Assembly (NCBI RefSeq): GCF_000014265.1
Contig: NC_008312.1
Location: 5,700,001 to 5,732,000 of the forward strand
Source of the DNA: Trichodesmium erythraeum IMS101
GTDB taxonomy: Bacteria > Cyanobacteriota > Cyanobacteriia > Cyanobacteriales > Microcoleaceae
Direction of reading: 5' to 3'
Length of the DNA stretch: 32,000 nucleotides
Position 1 is the stretch's first letter; each line of letters begins with the position of its first letter. A program made the position numbers and the translations under genes. Shown in pieces: positions 1,947-25,606 of this stretch. A model generated the notes under the pieces. That model saw only the letters and a program-made list of their open reading frames with translations. It was not told where the DNA came from and made no database searches.

Positions 1947-2510
1947 AGTTCTTCCCAAAGAAGCGTATTATTTACTGAATATTTTTGGCGTTGCTGAAGA
2001 CAAGGGCTGAAAATAAGATTTGCTCTTCAAGCACTTTTTCCCTGCCAAGATCATGTTCTGTTGAATACACATAATAAAAGTTTTGTGTACACAAGTGTTG
2101 CTAAATTTATTCTGGGATAAGCTTTGTGGTGATTTATCATAATTAGATCTCTCGGAAAATTAATCTCAAATTTTTAAATTTACTAGGCTAAAACTTAGTT
2201 TACCCAGAGATCTATTTAATTCTGGTCAATGATAAGCACTTAGGTGAGAGCGATCGCGATGATCTAAAAACATCCTTACTCTAAAAGTAGTACGATCATA
2301 TTTTTTTTTTCAACAACATTTTCACCAAATATTATTTTATCCTATTTGCTCTCTTTGTGCAACAAAGCTTTTGACTTGGTAAATTGAATTAGTAACTTGC
2401 TTGCTTTACAAGGCGATCACTACAGCTTTAAGTACGCTTTTGGTTAAACATTAGATTTTCATCATCTCACCAAAACTATTGAAAATAAAACCATAAGGAT
2501 ATATCAAACA

Positions 2511-2855
2511 ATGGATAATGATTTAAATATTCAGGTTGTACCTGTAGAGTTAGAGAATGGCAATGTAGTAAGAGTTGAAGCTACTGTTCTTAATGCATCA
2601 GGAGATACTTCTGATCAAGAAATTGAATCAGATGTGGCAGCTAATATCAGACCGCTCAAAGAAGTAACTGATACAGTAAAGGAAATTGCTGCAACTGTGA
2701 AAGCTTCCATAGATCAAGTTAAACCAACTAAAGCTTCTGTTGAATTTGGCTTAGAATTTGGTTATGAGTCAGGAAAGCTAACAGCTATGATCGTGAAAGG
2801 AACGGCAAAAGCAAATCTAAAAATTACTCTACATTGGGAAAATATTTCAAAATGA
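2511..2855 (+). CDS. trypco2-like (trypsin co-occurring domain 2 / CU044_2847-like) small protein
   Basis: 114 aa. The layout matches my memory of the family: an N-terminal beta segment (IQVVPVELENGNVVRVE), a helical middle, and a C-terminal VEFGLEFGYESGKLTAMIVKGTAKANLKITLHWE motif. It sits directly upstream of a trypsin-like protease and overlaps it. Confidence 0.75.
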   Translation: MDNDLNIQVVPVELENGNVVRVEATVLNASGDTSDQEIESDVAANIRPLKEVTDTVKEIAATVKASIDQVKPTKASVEFGLEFGYESGKLTAMIVKGTAKANLKITLHWENISK

Positions 2856-3775
2856 GGAATAGTATAGATGCCGGACGCTTGTACGAGTTATTTCGTAGTT
2901 GCATAGTACGAATTAAAACCTCAAAGAGTTTTGGTACAGGCTTTTGGGTCACTCCTGGACATATTCTTACCTGTGTTCATGTTATTGAGGGGAATGATCA
3001 CGATAGTATTGAAATTGTCTGGAAGCAAAATAATTATCAGTGTACAGAGATTAATATTTTTCAAGATGCTGACCTGGCTTTACTTAAGGTTGAAATAGAA
3101 AGTCATCCTTGTGTGTTTTTGGATGAAGACGCTTTACCAGGAGATGAGCTCTATAGTTATGGTTATCCTGAGCAAAAGCGAGATGGGGCTTCAATTACAA
3201 TGATTTGTGAAGGGCCTACAGATAATAAGAGGTTTTTGACGGTTAAGGATGAGAATGTTAGACCTGGGTTTAGTGGCGCTCCTTTATTTAATCAAAGAAC
3301 GTTCATGGTTTGTGGTGTGCTCAAGAGTGAACGTAAGTTTCCTGTTAATGGTAATGTACTACGGGCTTTGGGTGGACAAGCAATTCCAACTGCGAGAATT
3401 TTTGATAAGTGGCCTAATTTAAAAATATCTAATCAGGAGTTCCATCAAAAGTATCAAAGTTGGAGAAAAGAACTGGAAGTAACTAAACAGCAAGAACAAA
3501 ATTCACCACAATATTCGGCACAATATTCTATAAATAGTTCTTCTGAAAATCCGAGAATTCAATCTTTAAAAAATCAGAAACAAAGAATAGAGTCTCAGAT
3601 AGCTGAACTAGAAAAACTAAGTCATTTATGTAATCAAGATATAAAGGCAGAAACTAATTTGGCTAAAAGAAATCAGCTTCATACACAAATGGATAATTAT
3701 TCGACAGAAATTAACGAGTTATATGACAAGGTTCAGCAAATTATAGCTCAAATTAATAAGTTTCAAAATACTTAG
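2852..3775 (+). CDS. Trypsin-like serine protease (predicted effector) with a C-terminal coiled-coil adaptor tail
   Basis: Catalytic triad context: His in HILTCVHV, Asp in DADLALLKV, Ser in RPGFSGAPLF. The ATG at 2852 overlaps the upstream TGA (ATGA at 2852-2855), so I prefer it to the TTG at 2834. The last ~70 aa are a heptad-rich helix and form copy 1 of the 266-bp cassette. Confidence 0.85.
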   Translation: MRNSIDAGRLYELFRSCIVRIKTSKSFGTGFWVTPGHILTCVHVIEGNDHDSIEIVWKQNNYQCTEINIFQDADLALLKVEIESHPCVFLDEDALPGDELYSYGYPEQKRDGASITMICEGPTDNKRFLTVKDENVRPGFSGAPLFNQRTFMVCGVLKSERKFPVNGNVLRALGGQAIPTARIFDKWPNLKISNQEFHQKYQSWRKELEVTKQQEQNSPQYSAQYSINSSSENPRIQSLKNQKQRIESQIAELEKLSHLCNQDIKAETNLAKRNQLHTQMDNYSTEINELYDKVQQIIAQINKFQNT

Positions 3776-3804
3776 TTTATACAAGTAATTAAAAAGTTAT
3801 TTAA

Positions 3805-4041
3805 ATGTCAGATATTCAGAAATTAAAAAGTTTAGAAAATCGGCAACAAAGAATAGAGTCTCAGATAGCTGAACTAGAAAAACTAAGTCATTTATGTAAT
3901 CAAGATATAAAGGCAGAAACTAATTTGGCTAAAAGAAATCAGCTTCATACACAAATGGATAATTATTCGACAGAAATTAACGAGTTATATGACAAGGTTC
4001 AGCAAATTATAGCTCAAATTAATAAGTTTCAAAATACTTAG
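3805..4041 (+). CDS. Stand-alone coiled-coil adaptor module, 78 aa (copy 2)
   Basis: Intact ORF. The N-terminus resembles that of the 4608 gene (MSDIQKLKSLENRQQRIESQ against MSYIQKLKSLENQKQRIESQ). The remainder is identical to the protease tail. There is no clear Shine-Dalgarno sequence, so expression is uncertain. Confidence 0.5.
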   Translation: MSDIQKLKSLENRQQRIESQIAELEKLSHLCNQDIKAETNLAKRNQLHTQMDNYSTEINELYDKVQQIIAQINKFQNT

Positions 4042-4070
4042 TTTATACAAGTAATTAAAAAGTTATTTAA

Positions 4071-4307
4071 ATGTCAGATAGTCAGAAATTAAAAAGTTTA
4101 GAAAATCGGCAACAAAGAATAGAGTTTTAAATAGCTGAACCAGAAAAATTAAGTAATTTATCTAATCAAGACATAAAGGCAGAAAGTAATTTGGTTAAAA
4201 GAACTCAGCTTCATACACAAATGGATAATTATTCGACAAAAATTAATGAATTATATGATAAATTTCAGCAAATTATAGCTCAAATTAATAAGTTTCAAAA
4301 TACTTAG
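4071..4307 (+). pseudogene. Degenerate coiled-coil module (copy 3)
   Basis: Same ATG context as copy 2, but codon 20 is TAA (GAG TTT TAA in place of GAG TCT CAG). The rest aligns with copies 2 and 5. Confidence 0.7.
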
Positions 4308-4336
4308 TTTATACAAGTAATTAAAAAGTTATTTAA

Positions 4337-4578
4337 ATGTCAGATAGTCAGAAATTAAAAAGTTTGGAAAATCGGCAACAAAGAATAGAGTTTTAAATAG
4401 CATAGCTGAACCAGAAAAATTAAGTAATTTATCTAATCAAGACATAAAGGCAGAAAGTAATTTGGTTAAAAGAACTCAGCTTCATACACAAATGGATAAT
4501 TATTCGACAAAAATTAATGAATTATATGATAAATTTCAGCAAATTATAGCTCAAATTAATAAGTTTCAAAATACTTAG
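4337..4578 (+). pseudogene. Degenerate coiled-coil module (copy 4)
   Basis: Shares the TTT TAA nonsense with copy 3 and adds a 5-nt insertion (CATAG). Otherwise nearly identical to copy 3. Confidence 0.7.
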
Positions 4579-4607
4579 TTTATACAAGTAATTAAAAAGT
4601 TATCTAA

Positions 4608-5693
4608 ATGTCATATATTCAGAAATTAAAAAGTTTGGAAAATCAGAAACAAAGAATAGAGTCTCAAATAGCTGGACTAGAACAACTAAGCAATAAATGT
4701 AATCAAGAGATAAAGGCAGAAACTAGTTTAGCTCAAAGAACTCAGCTTAATACACAAATGGATAACTATTCGACAGAAATTAATGAACTATATAACAAAC
4801 TTGATCATATTGAAAATGAAATTGAAAATCTCAAGTTAAAGGAGAAAAGTTTGAGTTCAAACGATTATTTAGACAACCCTAAAAATCAGCAATTATTAAA
4901 ATTTGAGCAATACTTGTATGATATCGATTTTGAAAAAGCTTTAAAAACTTTTCAAAGAATTACATCTCAGTTTAATAAGGAGGGAGATGTAGCTTTGTTT
5001 TTCATAGAAAAATGTTTGACTAATCGAGGAGATTTATGTTTAAAAAGACTAAAAGATGACTTATTTTCAGAGACTTATAATATTCACAGGCAACATTTTC
5101 GTCCCTGTTTTGTCACATATACTTTAGGAAATTTAGAAGGAGTAATACAAGGAATAGCTAAATTTTTTGACGTTAAAAAAGAAGAAATGACTGTAGAATT
5201 AGTTATCAATAAAATAGGTAATTCTTTACAAAATAATTCGGTTTTGTTTATAGAAATTAATTGTGATATTAGTCAGCCTAGTGACATAGATCCATTAATA
5301 CCTTGGTTTATTAATGTTTTTTGGAAACCTTTGAGAGAAAAAGTAAACGAAGTAGCTAAGGATTATGAAGGTATTAAAGTTGTAGCTGTAATAACTTCTA
5401 ATCTATTACTTAATTCCAGATTTTCAAACTCAGAATTATCCTCCTACTATAATCGCAAAAGTAGAATTTTTTCTAGAGATAAATTAGTCAAAATACCTTT
5501 AGAAAAATGGAAAAAAGAAGATATTAAAAAATGGTTGACTAAATATGGTAATCCTCGTTTAAAAAACACAGATAAAGATACTATAGCTGAAAAAATTTAT
5601 AATGCAACTGACAAAGGAAGACCTACAGATGTTTGCCTAGCTTTACAACAAAAACAATGGCAAAACTTAATATATTCAAACCCTACCTATTAA
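4608..5693 (+). CDS. Coiled-coil adaptor (copy 5) fused to a degenerate P-loop/STAND-like domain (iSTAND-like)
   Basis: The first ~70 aa are homologous to the protease tail. The remainder has NTPase-like strand/helix spacing: DVALFFIEKCLTNRGD where a Walker A should be (no GxxxxGK[ST]), SVLFIEINCD (Walker-B-like), IKVVAVITSN (sensor-1-like) and KLVKIPLEKWKKEDIKKWL (STAND-like helical start). That it is a CDS is secure. The fold assignment is by eye. Confidence 0.6.
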   Translation: MSYIQKLKSLENQKQRIESQIAGLEQLSNKCNQEIKAETSLAQRTQLNTQMDNYSTEINELYNKLDHIENEIENLKLKEKSLSSNDYLDNPKNQQLLKFEQYLYDIDFEKALKTFQRITSQFNKEGDVALFFIEKCLTNRGDLCLKRLKDDLFSETYNIHRQHFRPCFVTYTLGNLEGVIQGIAKFFDVKKEEMTVELVINKIGNSLQNNSVLFIEINCDISQPSDIDPLIPWFINVFWKPLREKVNEVAKDYEGIKVVAVITSNLLLNSRFSNSELSSYYNRKSRIFSRDKLVKIPLEKWKKEDIKKWLTKYGNPRLKNTDKDTIAEKIYNATDKGRPTDVCLALQQKQWQNLIYSNPTY

Positions 5694-5711
5694 ACAATTA
5701 TAAGTTCAAAG

Positions 5712-6707
5712 ATGAATTACCATTTTGAAAATAATCCTAAAAATCGTCCTTCTAAACCTCATTCTGATTCACCTAAAAAAGTTGAACCCTACATTGCGCC
5801 AGATGAGTTAATTGATGCAGTAAACTTAGCAATTTTTCTGCGCCGTCCTCTCTTATTAGAAGGAGAAGCAGGCTGTGGAAAAACTCGATTACCACTCGCA
5901 GTTGCTTATGAATTAGGATTACCTTTTTATCGTTGGAATATTCGTTCAACTGCTAAAGCACAAGAAGGTTTATATGAATATGATGCTATCCTCAGACTCC
6001 ATGATGTTCAAACTCAAAAATTAGAAATAAAAAATAATAATCAAGACAAAGATAAAACTTATAGAAATCCTAGTAACCCTGAAAATTATCGAACTTTTGG
6101 AGCAATTGGTAATGCTTTTCTTTCAAATTGCCCGGCAATAGTTTTAATTGATGAAATAGATAAAGCTGACGTAGATTTTCCTAATGATTTACTAACAGTT
6201 TTAGATGAACCTTGGGAATTTAAAATTAGAGAAACTGGAGAAACAATTACCGCTAAAACTAATTGTCAGCCAATTGTAATTATTACTAGTAATAAAGAAA
6301 AAGGAAACTTACCAGCTCCTTTTCTACGTCGTTGTATTTATTATTATCTGAAATTTCCAGATGACCCTAAACAACTTCAAAAAATTGTTGATATTCACTA
6401 TCAATATAAACCAGACTCAGAAATTCTCAAAAAAATTAATTCCTCAAATAATGAATTAGTACAACAAGCTGCTCAACTATTTATTAAAATTAGAGAAAAT
6501 AAAGGCTTATTTAAAATTCCAGGTACAAGTGAATTTTTAGATTGGTTATATGCACTTTGTAGTTGTCAGACAAAACAAAATCCTCAGCTTCCTTATCCTC
6601 TTGAGAAATTAAAAGAAGGAGAATTAATTCCTTATCGAGAATTAATTTTTAAAATTCGTCAAGATTGGCAAAAAAATACCACTTTTCCTCAAACTAGTGA
6701 TTTATAA
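5712..6707 (+). CDS. MoxR-like AAA+ ATPase (AAA_5 type)
   Basis: Walker A LLEGEAGCGKTRL, Walker B IVLIDEIDKAD, sensor-1 IVIITSN, and an Arg-rich LPAPFLRRC segment. Size and order are typical of MoxR partners of vWA proteins. Confidence 0.9.
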   Translation: MNYHFENNPKNRPSKPHSDSPKKVEPYIAPDELIDAVNLAIFLRRPLLLEGEAGCGKTRLPLAVAYELGLPFYRWNIRSTAKAQEGLYEYDAILRLHDVQTQKLEIKNNNQDKDKTYRNPSNPENYRTFGAIGNAFLSNCPAIVLIDEIDKADVDFPNDLLTVLDEPWEFKIRETGETITAKTNCQPIVIITSNKEKGNLPAPFLRRCIYYYLKFPDDPKQLQKIVDIHYQYKPDSEILKKINSSNNELVQQAAQLFIKIRENKGLFKIPGTSEFLDWLYALCSCQTKQNPQLPYPLEKLKEGELIPYRELIFKIRQDWQKNTTFPQTSDL

Positions 6708-6774
6708 AATATCTCAAACTTCAACTTATTTGAACTACATTTTATTCACTTAAGCACAAAACTTTCAACCACTC

Positions 6775-7839
6775 ATGTTTGAACCTAACTCTTATTTAAC
6801 AACTCTTTTTTATCATTTGCGTCAAGCAGGTTTTAATCTGAGTATTAAAGAATACTTTTCGGTAAAAGATGCAATTAAAGGAGGTTGGGGAACAAAAAAT
6901 CAAGAAGACTTAAAAAAACTCCTACGCTTACTATGGTGTAACTCTTGGGAGCAACAACAGCATTTATCCCTAATATTTGATAGGATTTTTGAATCTGAAA
7001 AAACTCAAGAAACAACACCAAACCCCTCCACAAAAAATCAAAAAAATTTAAATTATGAACAACTTGAATCAGACTCATCAACTCCTATTTCTCCTACTAC
7101 AAAATTTCAATCTTCTTCAACAGAAATAACTAAACCAACCACTGAAAAACTATCCCCACTACCTATCACTAATATTCAACCAATACGAGAACATGAAAAC
7201 GACGCCGAATTTTATACTTATTATCCCATTTCTCGCCGTTTTATGGTTTATAGTTGGCGATATTTACGTCGCCCCATTGCTGACGGACTTAGAGATGTTT
7301 TAGATATTAAAATGACTGTTGAACAAGCTACAAAACAAGGATTTTTCTTACAACCAGTCTACCGTCGACGAGAAAAAAATCATGCTCATTTACTAATTTT
7401 CGTAGATCAAGAAGGTTCCATGACTCCCTTTCATCATTTCAGTCAAGACTTAGTAGAAACAGCTAAATATGAAAGCTCTATAGAAACAGTAGACGTTGCT
7501 TATTTTCATAACTTACCAGCAAAATATATTTATCAAGATCCTTTTTTGACTGATAAAATTTCCTTAGAAACTGTCTTAAATAAATGTGATAGTGAAACTA
7601 GAATTTTAATCATTAGTGATGCAGGTGCTGCTAGGGGGTATCGTCAGCGAACAAGAGTTTCAGGCACAACTGAAGTAATATGGGAAATTCAACAGCATAC
7701 TAACTTAGTAGCATGGCTTAACCCAGTTCCAAAAATGCGTTGGAATAACACTACAGCTAGTATTATCTCTCATTTAATACCTATGTTTCCTATGGATCAA
7801 GAAGGTTTAAGACAAGCTATTTTGACTTTACAAAGATAA
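6775..7839 (+). CDS. von Willebrand factor A (vWA, CoxE-like) protein, partner of the MoxR ATPase
   Basis: C-terminal vWA pattern: HLLIFVDQEGSM (MIDAS position) followed by RILIISDAGAARG. There is an N-terminal helical region and a low-complexity S/T/P/Q linker. It lies immediately downstream of the MoxR gene. Confidence 0.8.
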   Translation: MFEPNSYLTTLFYHLRQAGFNLSIKEYFSVKDAIKGGWGTKNQEDLKKLLRLLWCNSWEQQQHLSLIFDRIFESEKTQETTPNPSTKNQKNLNYEQLESDSSTPISPTTKFQSSSTEITKPTTEKLSPLPITNIQPIREHENDAEFYTYYPISRRFMVYSWRYLRRPIADGLRDVLDIKMTVEQATKQGFFLQPVYRRREKNHAHLLIFVDQEGSMTPFHHFSQDLVETAKYESSIETVDVAYFHNLPAKYIYQDPFLTDKISLETVLNKCDSETRILIISDAGAARGYRQRTRVSGTTEVIWEIQQHTNLVAWLNPVPKMRWNNTTASIISHLIPMFPMDQEGLRQAILTLQR

Positions 7840-7846
7840 TATAGAA

Positions 7847-9430
7847 ATGACAGAAATAACAGATAAAATTATCGCTCAGAATAAAGTAGAACAATTTGTA
7901 AGTCGTTTTGAAGATTCCTATTTCTTATTAGCTTCCCATGTCGCTTTACCTCTAGTATTAACTCCAGAATTAGTCAATTATCTCAGAATTGAATTTCTCA
8001 AAAGTGAAAAAGTTCCTTGGATTTCTGAAGCTGATTTATTGTTATCTAATTTGTGTCGTCCAGTTGGTTATGAACTTTATGTAATGGATGAAGGAGTAAG
8101 AATTTATTTACTCCAAAAATTAGCAGAAAACCCAAAGTTTGGTCAGAAAAGAATTAAAGAAATTGCCCGTTTATTACTGAGCTATATTAAATATTTAGCT
8201 AAAACTAATCATTTTATTGGAGACAAAGAACTACAACTTCAGACATGGGGTGCAATGTTGTATTTAGATACAGAGAAAACTGTCAAGGAAATAGCTTTTG
8301 CTATCTCTCAATGTATAGATAAAGCAGAGTTAGCTCGTTTACTAAAAATTACCCAAGATTTTAAACAACAAATAGCTTCATCAGGACAATTTCAAGACTT
8401 TTTAGACTATGCTCAACTTTGTAATGAATTACTTAGAGAACCTGAAAAAGTAACCCTAGAAAAAATAACACATTCATACCAGGTCGCAAAGCTTGAATTA
8501 ACTATACCAAAAATAGTTTTATCAAAAGAATTAGATCTAGGGGAATTATTTTATTTTGAAGTTGTAAAAGTTGATAATTTTGGCAATATTATTGAGCGTA
8601 GTCAGGAAAGCGCTAGGCAGAAAATAGAATATTTGGGTAATGAAATTAAATTGGAAATGGTTTATATTCCTGGGGGTACTTTTACCATGGGTTCTCCTAA
8701 AAGTGAAGTGGATAGCAGAGATAATGAACGGCCCCAACATCAGGTAACTGTTCCTTCCTTTTTTATGGGCAAATATCCAGTAACTCAAGGACAGTGGAAA
8801 GCGATCGCCTCTCGAACAGAATTAAAAGTAGAACGAGACCTAGACCCAGAGCCATCATATTTTAAAGAACCATACGAAAGTATAGATAGATGGCAGAGAC
8901 CAGTGGAGCTGGTTAGTTGGAACCAAGCAGTAGAATTTTGTCAAAGACTATCAAAACTAACAGGAAGAAAGTACAGGTTACCCAGTGAAGCCGAATGGGA
9001 ATATGCTTGTCGTGCAGGAACGAGTACACCATTCTACTTTGGAGAAACCATAACATCTGAGTTAGCTAACTATGATGGCAACCATACTTACGGCAAAGGG
9101 CCAAAAGGAGAAAATAGAGAGCAAACAACTCCTGTAGGTAAATTTCCACCAAATGCTTTTGGTTTATATGATATGCACGGAAACGTTGATGAATGGTGTG
9201 CTGACGACTGGTATGATAATTATGTAGGAGCTCCTACAGATGGAAGTGCTAGGATTAATAGTAATAAAAATAGTAATACTAATAGTACAAAAGTATTTCG
9301 TGGCGGCTCCTGGATCTACTATCCTTGGTGGTGTCGCTCTGCGCTCCGCGGCAACTTTAACTCGGACGAGGCGGACAGCATCTCTTTTGGTTTTCGTCTT
9401 GTGAGTTTCCCCCCCAGGACTTTTGAATAG
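7847..9430 (+). CDS. N-terminal helical domain of unknown function fused to a formylglycine-generating-enzyme/sulfatase-modifying (FGE-sulfatase, FGS) domain
   Basis: From about residue 260: MVYIPGGTFTMGSP, ERPQHQVTVPSFFMGKYPVTQGQW, VSWNQAVEFCQRLS, YRLPSEAEWEYACRAGT, FGLYDMHGNVDEWC, RGGSW...FGFRLV. These are the canonical FGE-sulfatase motifs. The start is 7 nt after the vWA stop. Confidence 0.9.
   Translation: MTEITDKIIAQNKVEQFVSRFEDSYFLLASHVALPLVLTPELVNYLRIEFLKSEKVPWISEADLLLSNLCRPVGYELYVMDEGVRIYLLQKLAENPKFGQKRIKEIARLLLSYIKYLAKTNHFIGDKELQLQTWGAMLYLDTEKTVKEIAFAISQCIDKAELARLLKITQDFKQQIASSGQFQDFLDYAQLCNELLREPEKVTLEKITHSYQVAKLELTIPKIVLSKELDLGELFYFEVVKVDNFGNIIERSQESARQKIEYLGNEIKLEMVYIPGGTFTMGSPKSEVDSRDNERPQHQVTVPSFFMGKYPVTQGQWKAIASRTELKVERDLDPEPSYFKEPYESIDRWQRPVELVSWNQAVEFCQRLSKLTGRKYRLPSEAEWEYACRAGTSTPFYFGETITSELANYDGNHTYGKGPKGENREQTTPVGKFPPNAFGLYDMHGNVDEWCADDWYDNYVGAPTDGSARINSNKNSNTNSTKVFRGGSWIYYPWWCRSALRGNFNSDEADSISFGFRLVSFPPRTFE
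9299..9400 (+). other. Candidate DGR variable region (VR) at the 3' end of the FGS gene
   Basis: By my count there are 12 A in 102 nt and about 57% GC, in a locus that is about one-third GC. The protein reads GGSW-IYYPWW-CRSA-L-R-GNFNSDEADSIS-FGFR. That is the conserved scaffold of CLec/FGE-fold DGR targets, with idiosyncratic residues where template-repeat Asn codons usually sit. No cognate TR or RT is in the window. Confidence 0.45.
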
Positions 9431-9464
9431 CCCTTTGCCCTCTTGCCCTCTTGCCCTATTTAGT

Positions 9465-9491
9465 CTCGCCTTTGGCGAGCCGAATTTTTTT
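9465..9491 (+). terminator. GC hairpin plus T-run: operon terminator and/or DGR-associated hairpin
   Basis: CTCGCC (9465-9470), TTT loop, GGCGAG (9474-9479), then CCGAATTTTTTT. It lies 35 nt after the FGS stop codon. Confidence 0.5.
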
Positions 9492-10363
9492 GAGAAATTA
9501 TCAAATGGCCACCAAATCAATAGATTTAATAGATATAACAATAGAAAAAAGCTCAGAACACTAAATTATGCAAAATTTTGTTTAAAAGCCGAAATTAATG
9601 ACTTAAACTGTGCTTCGACTGGTATCATAAATATGAAGCTTAGGCTCAAAAACCTAAAATTTAGGGCAGGAAGAAAATTCCCAGAAAATTTATCCTCTTA
9701 TCCCGTAATTAAATAAAGACACCCAGGTTTAAACCCGTAGTCAAAGTCTGGAATGCTAGTGTCTACTTGCAAAAAATAGTAGTATTATTTTTAGGTTGAA
9801 TTTCCTTAAGTTCAAGTTTTTTGTTTTACCTTAGCAAGCATATTAATTTATACAACTAGATAATAGTGTTGCTTCTCAGGAAAATTTCTGAATACTTGAT
9901 TATCTCTTACTAACGAATTTTTGTTGAATAAAAAGTCATGTATATAGGCAAGTTTCTCCATCTAATCTTATAATATCACAAAAAAAAATCTGAGAAGGGG
10001 AGGAAAGATTTTGCGCCGCGTCGCTTTTTCGGAGCTCCAGAAAATGAAATAAAAGTTGGCGATTTTCTACTGAGGAAGAATAAATGGAAAAATTCGACTA
10101 TGGGAAAAAAATAGAGGGGTGCTTCACAGAATGAGTTAAATAAATTAGTCTTACTTTTGGGAAAATTATTAAATGCTTGATTCTATTTTCCTAAAAAAAA
10201 GAGTTGAATAAAAAGTCATGTATATAGGCAAGTTTCTCCATCTAATCTTATAATATCACAAAAAAAATCTGAGAAGGGGAGGAAAGATTTTGCGCCGCGC
10301 CTCTTTTTCGGAGCTTCAGAAAATGAAAAAAAAAGTTGTTGATTTTCTACTGAGGAAGAATAA

Positions 10364-10459
10364 ATGGAAAAGTTCGGCGGTGGGAAAGAATATTGGAGTG
10401 CTTCACAGAATGAGTTAAATGAATTAGTCTTGCTTTTGGGAAAATTATTAAATCCTTGA
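10364..10459 (+). CDS. Array-encoded small ORF, 31 aa (MEKFGGGKEYWSASQNELNELVLLLGKLLNP)
   Basis: GAGGAAG lies 5 nt upstream of the ATG. The frame is shared with units 3, 4, 6 and 7. Coding status is unproven. Confidence 0.3.
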   Translation: MEKFGGGKEYWSASQNELNELVLLLGKLLNP

Positions 10460-10642
10460 TTGTATTTTCCTGAAAAAAAAGAGCTGAATAAAAAGTCATG
10501 TATATAGGCAAGCTTCTCCATCTAATCTTATAATATCACAAAAAAAATCTGAGAAGGGGAGAAAAATTTCTGCGCCGCGCCGTTTTTTCGGAGCCCCAGA
10601 AGATGAAATAAAAGTTGGCGATTTTCTACTAAGGAAGAATAA

Positions 10643-10747
10643 ATGGAAAATTTCCGCGATGGGAAAGAATATTGGAGTGCTTCAGAACATGAGCTAAATG
10701 AGTTAAATGAATTAGCCTTGCTTTTGGGAAAATTATTAAATCCTTGA
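10643..10747 (+). CDS. Array-encoded small ORF, 34 aa (MENFRDGKEYWSASEHELNELNELALLLGKLLNP)
   Basis: AAGGAAG lies 5 nt upstream of the ATG. It differs from the 31-aa form by an in-frame 12-nt indel. Confidence 0.3.
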   Translation: MENFRDGKEYWSASEHELNELNELALLLGKLLNP

Positions 10748-10930
10748 TTGTATTTTCCTGAAAAAAAAGAGTTGAATAAAAAGTCATGTATATAGGCAAG
10801 CTTTTCCATCTAATCTTATAATATCACAAAAAAAATCTGAGAAGGGGAGAAAAATTTCTGCGCCGCGCCGCTTTTTTGGAGCCTCAGAAGATGAAATAAA
10901 AGTTGGTGATTTTCTACTAAGGAAGAATAA

Positions 10931-11035
10931 ATGGAAAAATTCGGCGATGGGAAAGAATATTGGAGTGCTTCAGAACATGAGCTAAATGAGTTAAATGAAT
11001 TAGCCTTGCTTTTGGGAAAATTATTAAATGCTTGA
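10931..11035 (+). CDS. Array-encoded small ORF, 34 aa (MEKFGDGKEYWSASEHELNELNELALLLGKLLNA)
   Basis: AAGGAAG lies 5 nt upstream of the ATG. The frame is intact. Confidence 0.3.
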   Translation: MEKFGDGKEYWSASEHELNELNELALLLGKLLNA

Positions 11036-11510
11036 TTGTATTTTCCTGAAAAAAAAGAGTTGAATAAAAAGTCATATATATAGGCAAGCTTCTCCATCTA
11101 ATCTTATAATATCACAAAAAAAATCTGAGAAGGGGAGAAAAATTTCTGCGCCGCGCCTCTTTTTCGGAGCTCCATAAGATGAAATAAAAGTTGGTGATTT
11201 TCCGCTGAGGAAGAATAAATGGAAAAATTCGGCGAAGGGAAAGAATAGCGGAGTGCTTTACAGGATGAGTTAAATGATCTGAATGAGCTAAATAAATTAG
11301 TCTTGCTTTTGGGAAAATTATTAAATCCTTGATTGTATTTTCCTAAAAAAAAAGAGTTGAATAAAAAGTCATATATATAGGCAGGCTTCTCCATCTAATA
11401 AGATCACAAAAAAAATCTGAGAAGGGGAGGAAAGATTTTGCGCCGCGCCGCTTTTTCGGAGCCTCAGAAGATGAAATAAAAGTTGGTGATTTTCTACTAA
11501 GGAAGAATAA

Positions 11511-11615
11511 ATGGAAAAATTCGGCGATGGGAAAGAATATTGGAGTGCTTCAGAACATGAGCTAAATGATCTAAATGAATTAGCCTTGCTTTTGGGAAAA
11601 TTATTAAATGCTTGA
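11511..11615 (+). CDS. Array-encoded small ORF, 34 aa (MEKFGDGKEYWSASEHELNDLNELALLLGKLLNA)
   Basis: AAGGAAG lies 5 nt upstream of the ATG. The frame is intact. The TATAAT box of this unit is deleted (CTAATAAGATCAC). Confidence 0.3.
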   Translation: MEKFGDGKEYWSASEHELNDLNELALLLGKLLNA

Positions 11616-11798
11616 TTGTATTTTCCTAAAAAAAAAGAGTTGAATAAAAAGTCATATATATAGGCAAGTTTCTCCATCTAATCTTATAATATCACAAAAA
11701 AAATCTGAGAAGGGGAGAAAAATTTCTGCGCCGCGCCTCTTTTTCGGAGCTCCAGAAAATGAAAAAAAAGTTGGTGATTTTCTACTAAAGAAGAATAA

Positions 11799-11894
11799 AT
11801 GGAAAATTTCGGCGATGGGAAAGGATATTGGAGTGCTTCACAAAATGAGTTAAATGAATTAGTCTTGCTTTTGGGAAAATTATTAAATGCTTGA
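11799..11894 (+). CDS. Array-encoded small ORF, 31 aa (MENFGDGKGYWSASQNELNELVLLLGKLLNA)
   Basis: A weaker AAGAAG lies 5 nt upstream of the ATG. The frame is intact. Confidence 0.25.
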   Translation: MENFGDGKGYWSASQNELNELVLLLGKLLNA

Positions 11895-12912
11895 TTATAT
11901 TTTCCTAAAAAAAAGAGTTGAATAAAAAGTCATACATATAGGCAAGGTTCCACATCTAATCTTATAGTATCACAAAAAAATCTGAGGAGGGGAGGGAAAA
12001 TTTTGCGTCGCGTCGCTTTTTCAGAGCTCCAGAAAATGAAGCCAAAATGGTGATCTCCTCTGAGGAAGAATATGTGAGAGAGAATAGCGGAGTGCTTCAC
12101 AGGATAAGCCAAATGAATTAGTCTTGCTTTTGGGAAAACTATTAAATCCTTGATTGTATTTTCCTAAAAAAAAGAGTTGAATAAAAAGTCATGTATATAG
12201 GCAAGCTTCCTATTTAATCTTATATTATCACAAAAAATCTGAGAAGGGGAGGAAAGATTTTTCGACGCGCTACTTTCCCGGAGCTCCAGAGAATGAAATA
12301 AAATGGTTTGTGACTTTTCACTAAAGAAGAATAAATGAAAAAATTCGACTATGGGAAAAAAATAGAGGGGTGCTTCACAGAATGAGTTAAATAAATTAGT
12401 CTTACTTTTGGGAAAATTATTAAATGCTTGATTCTATTTTCCTAAAAAAAAGAGTTGAATAAAAAGTCATGTATATAGGCAAGCTTTCCATCTAACCTTA
12501 TAATATCACAAAAAAATCTGAGAAGAGGAGGAAAGACTTTGCGCCGCGCCTCTTTTTCGGAGCCACAGAAGATGAAATAAAAGTTGATGATTTTCTACTA
12601 AGGAAGAATAAATGGAAAATTCGACCATGGGAAAGAATAGCTAAGTGCTTCACAGAATGAGCCAAAAGAATGGGAAAATTATTAAATCCTTGATTGTATT
12701 TTCCTAAAAAAAAGAGTTGAATAAAAAGTCATGTATATAGGCAATATTCCCCATCTAATCTTATATTATCATAAAAAATCTGAAAATGGAAGGGAAATTT
12801 CTGTAGCGCGCCGCTTTTTTTTTTGGAGCTTCAGAGAATGAAAAAAAATCATTTGTGACTTTTCATTAAAGAGGAATAGATAGAAAAATTCGACTATAAT
12901 TCTCCCCTTAAT

Positions 12913-19799: not shown

Positions 19800-20960
19800 G
19801 AAGCTGTGCTTAATATAAATTAACAAGATGTAATAGTGAAGAAAATAATAGAGCGATCGCCAGCCTAAACATTGGCCATTAATAAAGTATTGGTAATAAA
19901 TTCCCAGCCAGTTATTTGAGATATTACTTTTTGAGTTAATTTATTTAAACTCTTAGTCAGAGCAATTTGTCATTTTTCTATACTGTCAAAATTAATTAAC
20001 TTAAAATCTTCTTTAATGTATCACCACAATCTCTCTATATAATTAACTTGTGGACTATATGGTAGTTGAAATAATAGAATAATATTCTCAGGAAGATTTA
20101 AGTTTAAAGCTTTGTGTAAACGACTTATTTAAACTCTTAGTCAGAGCAATTTGTCATTTTTCTATACTGTCAAAATTAATTAACTTAAAATTTTCTTTAA
20201 TGTATCACCACAATCTCTCTATATAATTAACTTGTGGACTATATGGTGGTTGAAATAATAGAATAATATTCTCAGGAAGATTTAAGTTTAAAGCTTTGTG
20301 TAAACGACTATTCTCTAACTAAATTATGTATATTTTATGAATTCAATTGCTATCCAAATAATTCAAAAAACTTTTCAAAGCCAATACAATTAATGAGAGT
20401 AAATTCCCAAAAAAAGCTTTCTCCTTTTAATGGTTATACTAACTATTATAACCATCTATATCAAAATTTTCATTGTTCTTTTCCTATCGATTTTACTCTT
20501 TTGAAAGTCACCTTTTATCCAGAAAAAGTTTTAATCTCAAAACGACTTTGATCCTGACACCAATCACGAATTTTTATACTATCTTTCAACATTTATTGAT
20601 TTTTATCTAACAGAGATTGAATTAGACCTGGTAGTTTTTTTTCCAGTTATTTACAGCATCTTTTTCTTGTTTGATATTAACTGGACGTGGAACTGTGAGT
20701 TTGGTTTTTAATTGATAATGAGCTATTTTAGATATAGTTCCATAACTTGCTGGGATATTATAAACACTCAATACCATTTATAAATTTCAGTATAACTATA
20801 AAAACCTTCTGGACCTTCTAATTCTCCTTTTAATTAATCTTTAAATATTTCTGGAATTAAAGATTGACGACCATAACTGGTATCAATTGTTAATAGTTTT
20901 TCTATTCTACCTTTACAGTAACTTAACTATCTAGAATTTGCTTATGATATTTTTTTTTCA
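19800..20960 (-). mobile_element. Degenerate IS630-family transposase relic
   Basis: Minus-strand translation, broken by many stops and frameshifts, gives an HTH-region fragment ...EGPEGFYSYTEIYKW...KTKLTVPRPVNIKQEKDAVNNWKK and a DDE-region fragment NIILLFQLPYSPQVNYIERLWWYIKEDF (compare LPPYSPELNPIE). The boundaries are approximate. Confidence 0.6.
19941..20308. repeat. 184-bp tandem duplication (2 copies) inside the IS630 relic
   Basis: 19941-20124 and 20125-20308 differ at two positions by my reading. Confidence 0.9.
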
Positions 20961-24009: not shown

Positions 24010-24772
24010 AATATGATAATTTTGTATGTTTTCAAGCTACTATTGAGTTCAGTAATTACTCAAAACCCATTTTTATGAGCAGTTCATAATGGTGATCAAA
24101 GTCTAGAGGAATTTTCTGGTATCTATGTCAAAGTTAGGGAAAACCTTTGTAAGGGTTTGTAATTAGAACTTACTTGGGCATTAGATGAGAATGCAGTTGC
24201 TATTTGTACCTGGTTAATACTTTTGACTTGAAATATAACCTAGATAAATAAAAGAAGAAATTTGACTCTGGCTTCATGCTAATAAAAGTAGTGTTTAAAG
24301 TTTTTTGTAGTCAACTCTGGAGGGGTAATAGGCAAGACTAAAAAGCTGACATAAAATGGTTTGTAGCTTTTATAATTCTCTGATAATTGAGCCATTTTTG
24401 AGAGTTATTGGCTATCAATTCCTCTGTTTATTCTGCAAACATGAACAAGGAATTTAACCAATATTGACCTCTATTTCCTGTATAAATATAGCTATTTTGT
24501 TTATATTTTATTCCTTTTTAAATTGGATAATTTACATAATTTACGACTCTTTTTTGACAATGTATTTTTCAAAAATTAATAATTAATAGGAAGCTAAAGT
24601 CATCAATAATATGATAGAAATTAATATTTTACCTTAACTTTAGTTACTTCCAAATTATAGCCTATTGTATTAAGAAATGGGAACATTTATTCAATACCTA
24701 TTCGTTTTTTATAGGTATTTATTTTCATTTATAAATCCCATAAATTTGTAATTATAAATTATGGCTGTTTTA

Positions 24773-25606
24773 CTATATTTTTTTCGATTTTAAGACAATA
24801 TTGATTGATATAAAATACTTAGATTGATTGATTTTTTTATTGTAAATATATAGATATATTCAGCTTTATTTATAATAATATTATAGCTATATATAGTTAT
24901 ATTTATATATACAATCTTTTTTTTCTCTAAAATAAAAACATGTCTTTTATTGATTTTTAACTATTTAGCTAGTTCCATAATATAGAATAATCTATTTCAT
25001 AAAGCTACTTTTTGGCAATCATCAAATCGAGCTAAAACTATCGGGATAAAACTTTAGATAAATATTCTTGCTTTCCTCTAAAATTACTATTACTTTTTTT
25101 GTCAATATTAGTAATATAAAATTGACTTACATATATCGCAATTGTTGATATTTATCTATATTTTTTTCTATTTTAAGACAATATTTATTGATATAAAATA
25201 CTTAGATTTATTGATTTTTTTTTATTGTAAATATATAGATATATTCGGCTTTATTCATAATTATATTATAGCTATATATAGTTATAGTTATATTTATATA
25301 TACAATCTTTTTTTTCTCTAAAATAAAAACATGTCTTTTATTGATTTTTAACTATTTAGCTAGTTCCATAATATAGAATAATCTATTTCATAAAGCTACT
25401 TTTTGGCAATCATCAAATCGAGCTAAAACTATCGGGATAAAACTTTAGATAAATATTCTTGCTTTCCTCTAAAATTACTATTACTTTTTTTGTCAATATT
25501 AGTAATATAAATCGGCATACTATTAAGTTTATAAATTAGGCTTATTAATAATAAATTTACCCAATTAAATTGACTTACATATATCGCAATTGTTGGTATT
25601 TATCTA
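24773..25606. repeat. 383-bp tandem duplication (2 copies), extremely AT-rich and non-coding
   Basis: Copy 1 is 24773-25155 and copy 2 is 25156-25606. Copy 2 carries a ~56-bp insertion (TCGGCATACTATTAAG...CCCAATTA) and a few small indels. No ORF is present. Confidence 0.9.

Follow-up and report, generated by a model that had tools for sequence, protein, structure and literature searches.

The tandem array that occupies a convergent intergenic region of Trichodesmium erythraeum IMS101 is best explained, with moderate confidence, as a young, lineage-specific and non-coding array of the minisatellite kind, and repeat-derived non-coding RNAs (ncRNAs) would be its most likely activity, if it has any. 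Within the window, that is, the whole stretch of 32,000 nucleotides that was analysed and to which all positions refer, the array consists of ten full units, a truncated eleventh one and a degenerate partial unit that begins at about 9864:

9864-9922, + strand: degenerate partial unit ('unit 0'), matching the terminal ~59 nt of a unit; left edge of the array
9923-12715, + strand: ten full tandem units of 259-297 bp (TRF, repeat families, MAFFT alignment and identity matrix), starting at 9923, 10203, 10483, 10771, 11059, 11356, 11639, 11917, 12176 and 12454
12716-12895, + strand: truncated unit 11, promoter-like part and 5' part only

The original prediction, made from the same DNA, was of eleven units of ~280 bp. 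This is borne out by TRF (array at 9923-12819/12894, period of 278-288, 10.4 copies, 86% matches), with the eleventh unit truncated, and alignment gives the same eleven unit starts. Homology sets in about 59 nt before the first predicted unit: a repeat search gives a 67% copy at 9877-9919, the local alignment is in register with the unit phase, and BLAST of array units from other contigs reaches back to 9864. The homogenised centre and decayed edges that had been described are also found, central units being 86-97% identical and edge units 74-91%, and units 1 and 9 do have a 1-nt insertion in common (91-95% identity). The TATAAT box, the purine-rich GAGAAGGGGAG block and the GCGCCGCGCC island hold, as predicted, a fixed place in the majority of units; variants of them occur in units 6 and 8-11. 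The truncated terminal unit is common to L001, L022, L025 and L034. TRF finds four other tandem-repeat loci in the window.

The left neighbour of the array is a DGR-target-like FGE/CLec gene and the right one a convergent GH3 (nagZ-like) gene. The array had been said to abut a conflict operon directly; this has to be corrected, since 492 nt separate the stop of the FGE gene from the first full unit. On the other side, 17 nt lie between the array end and the stop codon of the GH3 gene, into whose 3' end the last unit points. The functional link with the conflict operon that had been thought conceivable gains nothing from the analysis, the repeat being present in L035 with other neighbours on its left. 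That the unit derives from the flanking genes, as in the 103-kb array of this genome discussed below, was rejected after BLAST against the rest of the window gave no match.

In the searches made, the unit is confined to T. erythraeum-type contigs and DNA, and both copy number and unit order vary between contigs. The orthologous GH3 gene of three other Trichodesmium-like lineages (94%, 92% and 87% nucleotide identity) has no adjoining array. Scans of viral contigs and blastn against plasmid and phage collections found nothing, and a hairpin-pattern scan of metagenome contigs gave 3 chance matches. An 18-mer scan of genome contigs gave 14 chance single matches in unrelated taxa; it missed even the source genome (presumably masked) and is uninformative on other Trichodesmium genomes. 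The arrays used for comparison all belong to very close relatives, whose flanks are at least 99% identical, and short-read assemblies may collapse or chimerise repeats, which limits the depth of the tests of coding and constraint given below.

According to the preferred explanation, the array would grow, shrink and become homogenised through unequal crossing-over and gene conversion between units, which probably drive the uniform centre, the decayed edges and the copy number and unit order that differ between strains. The open reading frames (ORFs) of both strands would be by-products of composition and of the recent amplification of one variant. Any ncRNA transcription would presumably begin ~6-8 nt past each TATAAT, within the A-run, and the transcripts would be expected to run towards or into the next unit because there is no intrinsic terminator; those begun in the truncated last unit would enter the GH3 3' end in antisense orientation. 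The elements on which such transcription would depend are the following:

10793-10822, + strand: predicted promoter-like site TAGGCA-N18-TATAAT (consensus scan), representative
9945-9974, 10225-10254, 10505-10534, 11081-11110, 11661-11690, 11939-11968, 12198-12226, 12476-12504 and 12738-12767, + strand: equivalent predicted promoter-like sites
10836-10880, + strand: 5' inverted repeat UCUGAGAAGGGGAG ... CUUUUUCGGA around the GCGCCGCGCC island (helix 1 of the RNAalifold consensus)

Promoter-like sites of the sigma-70 type, TAGGCA-N17/18-TATAAT, are reported on the + strand for every unit; the consensus scan gives 10/12 matches in seven units and 9/12 in three, and unit 6 has a 5-nt deletion at the site. 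The idea that each unit is an individually promoted small RNA, one of the two originally offered, thus keeps its promoter-like site per unit and finds nothing in terminators, Rfam, folding stability or covariation. Terminator-like sites are absent from the array on both strands. The 5' inverted repeat shows neither compensatory changes nor a stability above that of shuffles (z = -0.42 and +0.70), the GC island can form a 3-bp stem at most (judged by reading the sequence), and neither excess folding stability nor covariation was found for the unit RNA. Rfam is taken here to include a model of NsiR1, the small RNA of a comparable array. Screening of the whole window with cmscan and Rfam 15 at gathering thresholds gave 0 matches, and a scan of the array at E up to 10 returned eukaryotic snoRNA/lncRNA noise only and no NsiR1. 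Complementary sites for the GAGAAGGGGAG block, which would point to an antisense target, do not occur outside the array. The number of promoter-like sites in the region (12 vs 11.3 expected from shuffles) and the variability of the -10/spacer segment, one of the unit's more variable parts, also speak against the ncRNA reading, as does the lack of a terminator, stable fold or covariation that would back a discrete RNA. Judged from the sequence, repeat-derived ncRNA is a plausible possibility.

Some of these observations suit equally a silent, selectively neutral satellite with no specific transcription or function, in which the TATAAT box, the Shine-Dalgarno-like (SD) motif and the ORF would be coincidental. 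This explanation is possible, though we give it clearly less weight than the preferred one. In its favour, the promoter-like sites are not enriched, neither structural nor coding constraint is detected, and the 'mini-gene' look that had been attributed to each unit exceeds chance only weakly: its anatomy is real, but 51% of shuffled units contain an exact TATAAT, 6.8% an SD motif and ATG with an ORF of 31 aa or more, and 3.7% the two combined. Mutations follow a neutral-looking spectrum that resembles ordinary AT-biased decay (ts:tv 81:49), with C and G columns varying most, the sister lineages are without the array, T. erythraeum is repeat-rich (PMC4143802), and the window has four further repeat loci. 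On the other hand, all 25 distinct units share an unchanged TAGGC in the -35-like element, neither chance nor composition accounts for the homogeneity of an ~85-nt block, and most non-coding DNA of T. erythraeum is reported as transcribed (PMC4649490).

A more ambitious reading, which we regard as unlikely, takes the array as a set of undescribed 'sibling' regulatory RNAs or very short-lived micro-proteins, with one promoter per unit. Taken jointly with this reading and equally unlikely, the array would lie at the edge of a strain-variable island holding a DGR-diversified conflict system, the fast 5' two-thirds of the unit would reflect selection for decoy, antisense or seed diversity and not recombinational noise, and the homogeneous ~85-nt block would be a constant scaffold or control region. 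In the assemblies compared, the 5' two-thirds diverge some 8-10-fold faster than the neutral flanks, an excess that may be an assembly artefact. The adenine mutagenesis expected of a DGR variable or template repeat was rejected for the array: A columns are the least variable (25%), compared with 69% for C and 55% for G.

The other original proposal was that the units are small-protein genes, each intact unit expressing an acidic/amphipathic peptide of 31-34 aa, MEKFGDGKEYWSASEHELNELNELALLLGKLLNA or variants of it, perhaps as an accessory of the conflict system. The frames concerned are:

10931-11035, + strand: intact small ORF, 34 aa, representative; no coding constraint detected
10364-10459, 10643-10747, 11511-11615 and 11799-11894, + strand: other intact small ORFs
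11219-11332, + strand: small ORF of unit 5, interrupted by TAG and in frame

The description of these frames was largely accurate, the ORF being intact in units 2, 3, 4, 6 and 7 of IMS101, TAG-interrupted in unit 5 and frameshifted or start-less in units 1, 8, 9, 10 and 11. The length variants, described as 12-nt steps, have lengths of 96, 105 and 114 nt, that is, steps of 9 nt that come from 2, 3 or 4 copies of an internal GAGYTAAAT ('ELN') repeat; as slippage of a 9-nt repeat keeps the frame automatically, they are no evidence of coding. What can be said for a peptide is that five central units combine an AGGAAG-N8-ATG start with an intact ORF, an arrangement of the kind found in just the 6.8% of shuffled units mentioned above, that intact variants occur also in L024, L025 and L026, and that the C-terminal LLLGKLLN codons fall within the homogeneous block. 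The pattern of substitution nevertheless contradicts it. Across 21 distinct units the changes are 7 synonymous, 37 non-synonymous and 2 to stop, the synonymous share being 15% against 17% expected at random; dN/dS across copies is ~1, with no sign of purifying selection, and changes by codon position (20:13:13) show no third-position excess. At codon 10, TAG is the majority state. The ORF is intact in 9/25 distinct units and disrupted in 16/25, and it is intact in 0/4 units of the syntenic strain contig L001, counts in which some arrays may be collapsed by short-read assembly. Nonsense, frameshift, start-loss and stop-loss variants are all found, the stop codon being lost in several natural variants to give products of 47-50 and 109 aa. 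The unit 7 ORF differs between strains at 4/96 nt (3 non-synonymous) against a neutral flank divergence of ~0.3-0.5%, and hypervariability is just as marked in the 5' part of the unit outside the ORF. Finally, phmmer against 1.84 billion representatives gave 3 matches to the small peptide, all from these arrays. The plus-strand small ORF therefore shows no sign of protein coding, and genuine small-protein genes are quite improbable. The 31-aa peptide of unit 2 falls in a 90% cluster with 974-aa proteins; this was discarded as a clustering artefact, the cluster mates being GC-rich glycine dehydrogenases with no similarity to the peptide (BLASTP E = 12).

The part of the unit that stands out by its homogeneity straddles the predicted unit boundary:

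11000-11085, no strand assigned: most homogeneous ~85-nt block, representative

It covers the last codons and stop of the small ORF, an A8 run, GTTGAATAAAAAGTCAT and the -35-like TAGGC, and contains a 7-bp inverted repeat, GGGAAAAT..ATTTTCC (11014-11046). Over 71 columns the block carries 13 changes where ~30 would be expected, a number reached or undercut in 34/20000 column permutations, and base composition does not explain it. It could mean that a constrained element is left unaccounted for, which counts against the preferred explanation. One form of this would be a reiterated protein-binding or structural DNA site made of the inverted repeat, the phased A-tracts and GTTGAATAAAAAGTCAT, and, jointly with it, an array that titrates a regulator, organises the nucleoid or insulates the convergent units. 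We hold such a DNA-level element for rather improbable. It agrees with the block being the least variable part of the unit, with an inverted repeat whose predicted RNA hairpin is backed by neither energies nor covariation, and with the location of the array between convergent genes; no known motif or binding protein was identified, and L026 has several changes in the block. Between strains, moreover, the block diverges 0.9% and the rest of the unit 3.9%, against ~0.3-0.5% for neutral flank. As a constrained element the block was thus rejected: orthologous units change there at a roughly neutral rate, 'conserved' means here 'not hypervariable', and the homogeneity may just mark where conversion tracts fall.

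The original prediction missed minus-strand ORFs of 93-102 aa that span each central unit, three of which are annotated:

10528-10809, - strand: Tery_3721, annotated hypothetical protein; judged spurious
10816-11097, - strand: Tery_3722, annotated hypothetical protein; judged spurious
11369-11677, - strand: Tery_3723, annotated hypothetical protein; judged spurious
10216-10521 and 11104-11394, - strand: unannotated sibling ORFs; judged spurious

That these encode genuine proteins, or are what is left of one long repeat protein, is highly improbable in spite of their annotation in GenBank and UniRef, the 132-195-aa versions predicted by gene callers in metagenome contigs and the presence of only 2 stops per unit in frame. 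A 93-codon open frame arises in 16% of shuffled tandemised units, so that it is expected from composition; synonymous changes make up a fraction of 0.22, where 0.20 would be expected, and no coding signal appears in any minus-strand frame. S, F, L and N abound in the product, as in translations of T-rich DNA; it contains no Pfam domain, and outside the array it has no homologue. The frame crosses A8/T8 runs that vary by 1 nt in length between units. Two A8 runs occur in each unit; across the genome, runs of this kind are enriched in intergenic DNA and extremely depleted within coding sequence (PMC4060949). A literature search found no mention of Tery_3716-3726.

The record is therefore corrected in one respect: Tery_3721, Tery_3722 and Tery_3723, together with the tempting 'mini-genes', are most likely non-coding repeat DNA, and the array is a further example of non-coding DNA in Trichodesmium, whose genome has an unusually large share of it, rich in repeats and largely transcribed. 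Should the promoters of the individual units be active, the array would be a second individually promoted repeat array in T. erythraeum and a convenient natural system for tandem-array turnover between oceanic populations. At present, nothing points to a new mechanism.

Three known systems can be compared with the array. In bacterial minisatellites (VNTR), copy number and unit order likewise vary between close strains, homogenisation takes place by unequal recombination, distribution is restricted by lineage and neither coding nor structural constraint is seen; the present unit differs in being long (~280 bp), in its unusually gene-like layout and in having one sub-block more homogeneous than the rest.

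The NsiR1 array of Nostoc/Anabaena PCC 7120 consists of 12 tandem copies upstream of hetF, with identical central copies and diverged peripheral ones (PMC9045159). Both arrays are formed by tandem direct repeats in a filamentous cyanobacterium (11 copies here vs 12), with a homogenised centre, a diverged periphery (here 86-97% vs 74-91%) and a promoter-like element per unit, and the terminal unit is antisense into the neighbouring gene, namely the last unit into the GH3 3' end here and the first copy to the hetF 5' UTR there. Nevertheless, the unit is of ~280 bp and not an sRNA unit of ~60 nt, the DIF1 motif (TCCGGA) is absent across 9801-12912 and a generic TAGGCA-N17/18-TATAAT is found in its place, the Trichodesmium array has no terminator inside it, matches no Rfam family even at E up to 10 and lies beside FGE/CLec and GH3 genes, not hetF. 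To our knowledge, T. erythraeum forms no heterocysts. Each NsiR1 copy is transcribed from its own promoter as a discrete sRNA ended by a terminator, whereas transcription of the Trichodesmium units is a prediction.

The closest parallel within the genome is the 7-unit array of T. erythraeum IMS101 at 103-110 kb, where each unit has its own transcription start site (TSS) and which accounts for ~45% of primary reads; its units of 736-973 bp each contain a duplicated 3' part of the neighbouring gene, and besides the mapped TSSs, transcripts of ~260 nt were confirmed by northern blot (PMC4143802). The present units of ~280 bp lack similarity to the flanking genes, and their locus is absent from the main text and from the top-expressed transcripts of Table 1 of that study, whose transcriptome library left out RNAs <300 nt (PMC4143802). 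Both are intergenic tandem arrays that abut the 3' end of a reverse-strand gene, with near-identical units, a diverged edge unit and no similarity reported elsewhere. Near-identical intergenic units without similarity outside the lineage, which define the arrays of Pfreundt 2014, are what is found here, and the array at 103-110 kb shows that such arrays can be sources of individually promoted ncRNAs.

The reading with most support is that the array, which lies between convergent genes, would be a young non-coding tandem repeat, specific to its lineage and variable in copy number, and that its gene-like look would be incidental. The array itself is confirmed with minor corrections: Tandem Repeats Finder places it at 9923-12819/12894 (period 278-288, 10.4 copies, 86% matches), and the unit starts of the original prediction are exact. 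Ten full units of 259-297 bp are followed by a truncated eleventh (12716-12895), and repeat homology is already present from ~9864 as a degenerate partial unit in register with the array. Identity is 86-97% for central units and 74-91% for edge units. With 492 nt between its start and the stop of the upstream FGE-domain gene, but 17 nt between its end and the GH3 stop, the array adjoins the convergent GH3 gene and not, as had been proposed, the conflict operon. Tandem Repeats Finder reports four other tandem-repeat loci in the window, which are given here together with two neighbouring features:

1424-1584: tandem repeat, 36 bp x 4.5
3565-4799: tandem repeat, 266 bp x 4.6, 93% identity
7847-9430: FGE-sulfatase/CLec-domain gene immediately preceding the array, Tery_3720 by gene order
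9423-9716, + strand: 97-aa TTG-start ORF, overlapping the FGE gene end and the conserved spacer
19941-20309: tandem repeat, 184 bp x 2
24769-25511: tandem repeat, 391 bp x 1.9

The 266-bp repeat overlaps the ORFs at 2834-3775 (trypsin-like) and 4608-5693 (iSTAND), and its consensus resembles coiled-coil coding sequence; a gene of the conflict operon may be fragmented or expanded by repeats here. The copy number of the 184-bp repeat appears to vary between strains, as suggested by the alignments of two contigs (L025 and L034), which break at 20125-20129. Near its 3' end, especially at ~9250-9390, Tery_3720 has a patch that is sharply hypervariable between strains (at 9340-9389, 15-19 mismatches in 50 nt versus 0-4 elsewhere) and that is followed by perfectly conserved DNA. 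This patch reads as a putative DGR variable-region signature; twelve FGE-domain DGR targets have been described in IMS101 (Pfreundt et al., PMC4143802). The 97-aa ORF is probably spurious; at its site gene callers give a 70-aa product in two contigs (L001 and L026), with no Pfam match.

All accessible related arrays were compared; they lie in contigs from marine metagenome or SRA assemblies (L001, with both flanks, L002-L004, L022-L027, L034 and L035). Contigs of the T. erythraeum type vary in the number and order of their units, and the right-edge units 7-11 are recognisably orthologous (95-99% identity). Beyond them, an 18-mer scan of reference genomes gave chance matches only (it also missed the source genome, which is presumably masked), a 24-mer scan of JGI metagenomes gave nothing beyond chance matches, and the repeat is absent from viral, plasmid and phage collections. 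GH3 orthologues from three other Trichodesmium-like lineages (94%, 92% and 87% nucleotide identity) have no array or unit-like sequence in their flanks. In one of them (L029) the GH3 gene directly adjoins the orthologue of the PPC-domain gene (1248-1946), and therefore window ~1950-12900, comprising the array and the trypsin-like, iSTAND, AAA, VWA and FGE operon, is an insertion relative to that lineage. The absence of this stretch, from trypsin-like peptidase to array, in the related lineage (L029/L030) points to a strain- or species-variable island.

The functional link to the conflict operon that had been considered conceivable is unsupported. In contig L035 (Logan SRR32466003) a unit-2-like unit at 2850-3255 follows a different, degenerate 'unit 0', and the left neighbours are Rhodanese and Uma2-family genes without match to the window. 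Either the repeat has a second locus or its left flank varies here; since the genes differ, the conflict operon is not an obligatory neighbour of the repeat. In L026 (1-5481), another contig of the T. erythraeum type, a different operon lies upstream of the array, with an AAA gene, an HTH_23/HTH_32 transposase-like gene and an FGE-domain protein of 1086 aa versus 527 aa in the window; the 3' end of the FGE region and its downstream spacer are conserved.

Between IMS101 and the L025 strain, divergence is 0.15% in flanking CDS, 0.33% at third codon positions and 0.52% in the non-coding flank. Orthologous units (window 11696-12770 versus L025 107-1181) differ by 3.9% over most of their length, ~8-10 times more than the neutral flank (0.3-0.5%), whereas an ~85-nt block differs by 0.9%. 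The block runs from the last codons of the ORF through an inverted repeat, an A8 run and GTTGAATAAAAAGTCAT to a -35-like TAGGC. Paralogous units, too, vary least here (13 changes in 71 columns versus ~30 expected; 34 of 20000 permutations were as low), which base composition does not account for. The two rates indicate that the block is not strongly constrained and that the remainder is hypervariable. Gene conversion among units that differ in sequence is a likely cause of the excess divergence, and chimeric short-read assemblies are a possible one; selection could be another. The mutation spectrum (81 transitions to 49 transversions, C/G columns varying most) fits ordinary AT-biased decay, and DGR-type adenine mutagenesis of the array is ruled out, as A columns vary least.

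The alternative that each unit is a small RNA gene is possible but unproven. A promoter-like TAGGCA-N17/18-TATAAT occurs on the + strand at the same position in 10 of the 11 units. As support for an RNA gene it is weak, because the region holds 12 promoter-like sites versus 11.3 in shuffles and an exact TATAAT appears in 51% of shuffled units (3.7% have TATAAT as well as an SD+ATG ORF of 31 aa or more). From 25 distinct units rotated to the putative start site, RNAalifold predicts two hairpins, a 5' one around the GC island and a 3' one (GGGAAAAU...AUUUUCC). Compensatory changes are found in none of the 42 pairs (covariation term -0.96 kcal/mol), which is uninformative rather than negative given the small divergence available, and pair statistics at this small divergence equal those of shuffled controls. 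Neither hairpin is unusually stable when folded alone, a full unit shows no better folding than shuffles on either strand (z = +0.29 and +0.18), and no terminator-like sites lie inside the array. Rfam 15 gives no match over the window at gathering thresholds and, over the array at E up to 10, eukaryotic snoRNA-type noise only.

The other proposal, a set of small-protein genes, is not borne out. The + strand ORF is indeed intact in units 2, 3, 4, 6 and 7, in frame but broken by a TAG in unit 5, and frameshifted or without start in units 1, 8, 9, 10 and 11. Its lengths are 96, 105 and 114 nt, in steps of 9 nt instead of the 12 nt first reported; they derive from an internal 9-nt 'ELN' repeat (2-4 copies), whose slippage keeps the frame automatically. 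Among 21 distinct full units there are 7 synonymous, 37 non-synonymous and 2 stop-gain changes (20:13:13 by codon position), a synonymous share of 15% versus 17% expected for random single-base changes. The ORF is intact in just 9 of 25 distinct units, and at codon 10 the stop TAG, not TAT, is in the majority. All four full units of L001, a contig that covers the entire locus, have a disrupted ORF (two TAG, one frameshift, one start lost), and natural stop-loss variants (TGA to TGG) lengthen the product to 47-50 or 109 aa. An exhaustive phmmer search against 1.84 billion representative proteins returned three matches, all from the same repeat.

Overlooked originally, ORFs of 93-102 aa span each central unit on the minus strand and match, exactly or nearly, Tery_3721, Tery_3722 and Tery_3723 of T. 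erythraeum IMS101, so that the present annotation of the array consists of three hypothetical proteins encoded opposite the 'mini-genes'. Their synonymous fraction is 0.22 versus 0.20 expected, 16% of dinucleotide-shuffled tandemised units hold a 93-codon open frame, and the S/F/L/N-rich product is translated T-rich DNA. Each unit has two A8 runs, differing by 1 nt in length between units; in T. erythraeum, runs of at least 8 identical bases are strongly over-represented in intergenic and extremely under-represented in coding DNA (PMC4060949). We conclude that neither strand of the array is likely to encode a protein under selection.

A non-coding repeat may nevertheless be transcribed. It is plausible that the promoter-like sites are active and yield repeat-derived ncRNAs, and that the last truncated unit would be transcribed antisense into the GH3 gene, since much of the large non-coding fraction of T. 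erythraeum is transcribed. A further reason is that another array of this genome, made of seven units that each have a TSS, gives ~45% of all primary reads (PMC4143802). The present locus is absent from the top transcripts of that study, whose libraries excluded RNAs <300 nt. Membership of the NsiR1 family is rejected: the array is without the DIF1 motif, terminator, ~60-nt unit and hetF context of NsiR1 (PMC9045159), as well as without an Rfam match, and the two are alike only in tandem layout and homogenised centre. At most, the array would work like an NsiR1-type or Pfreundt-type repeat array. It adds a further intergenic tandem repeat to a genome well known for such repeats.
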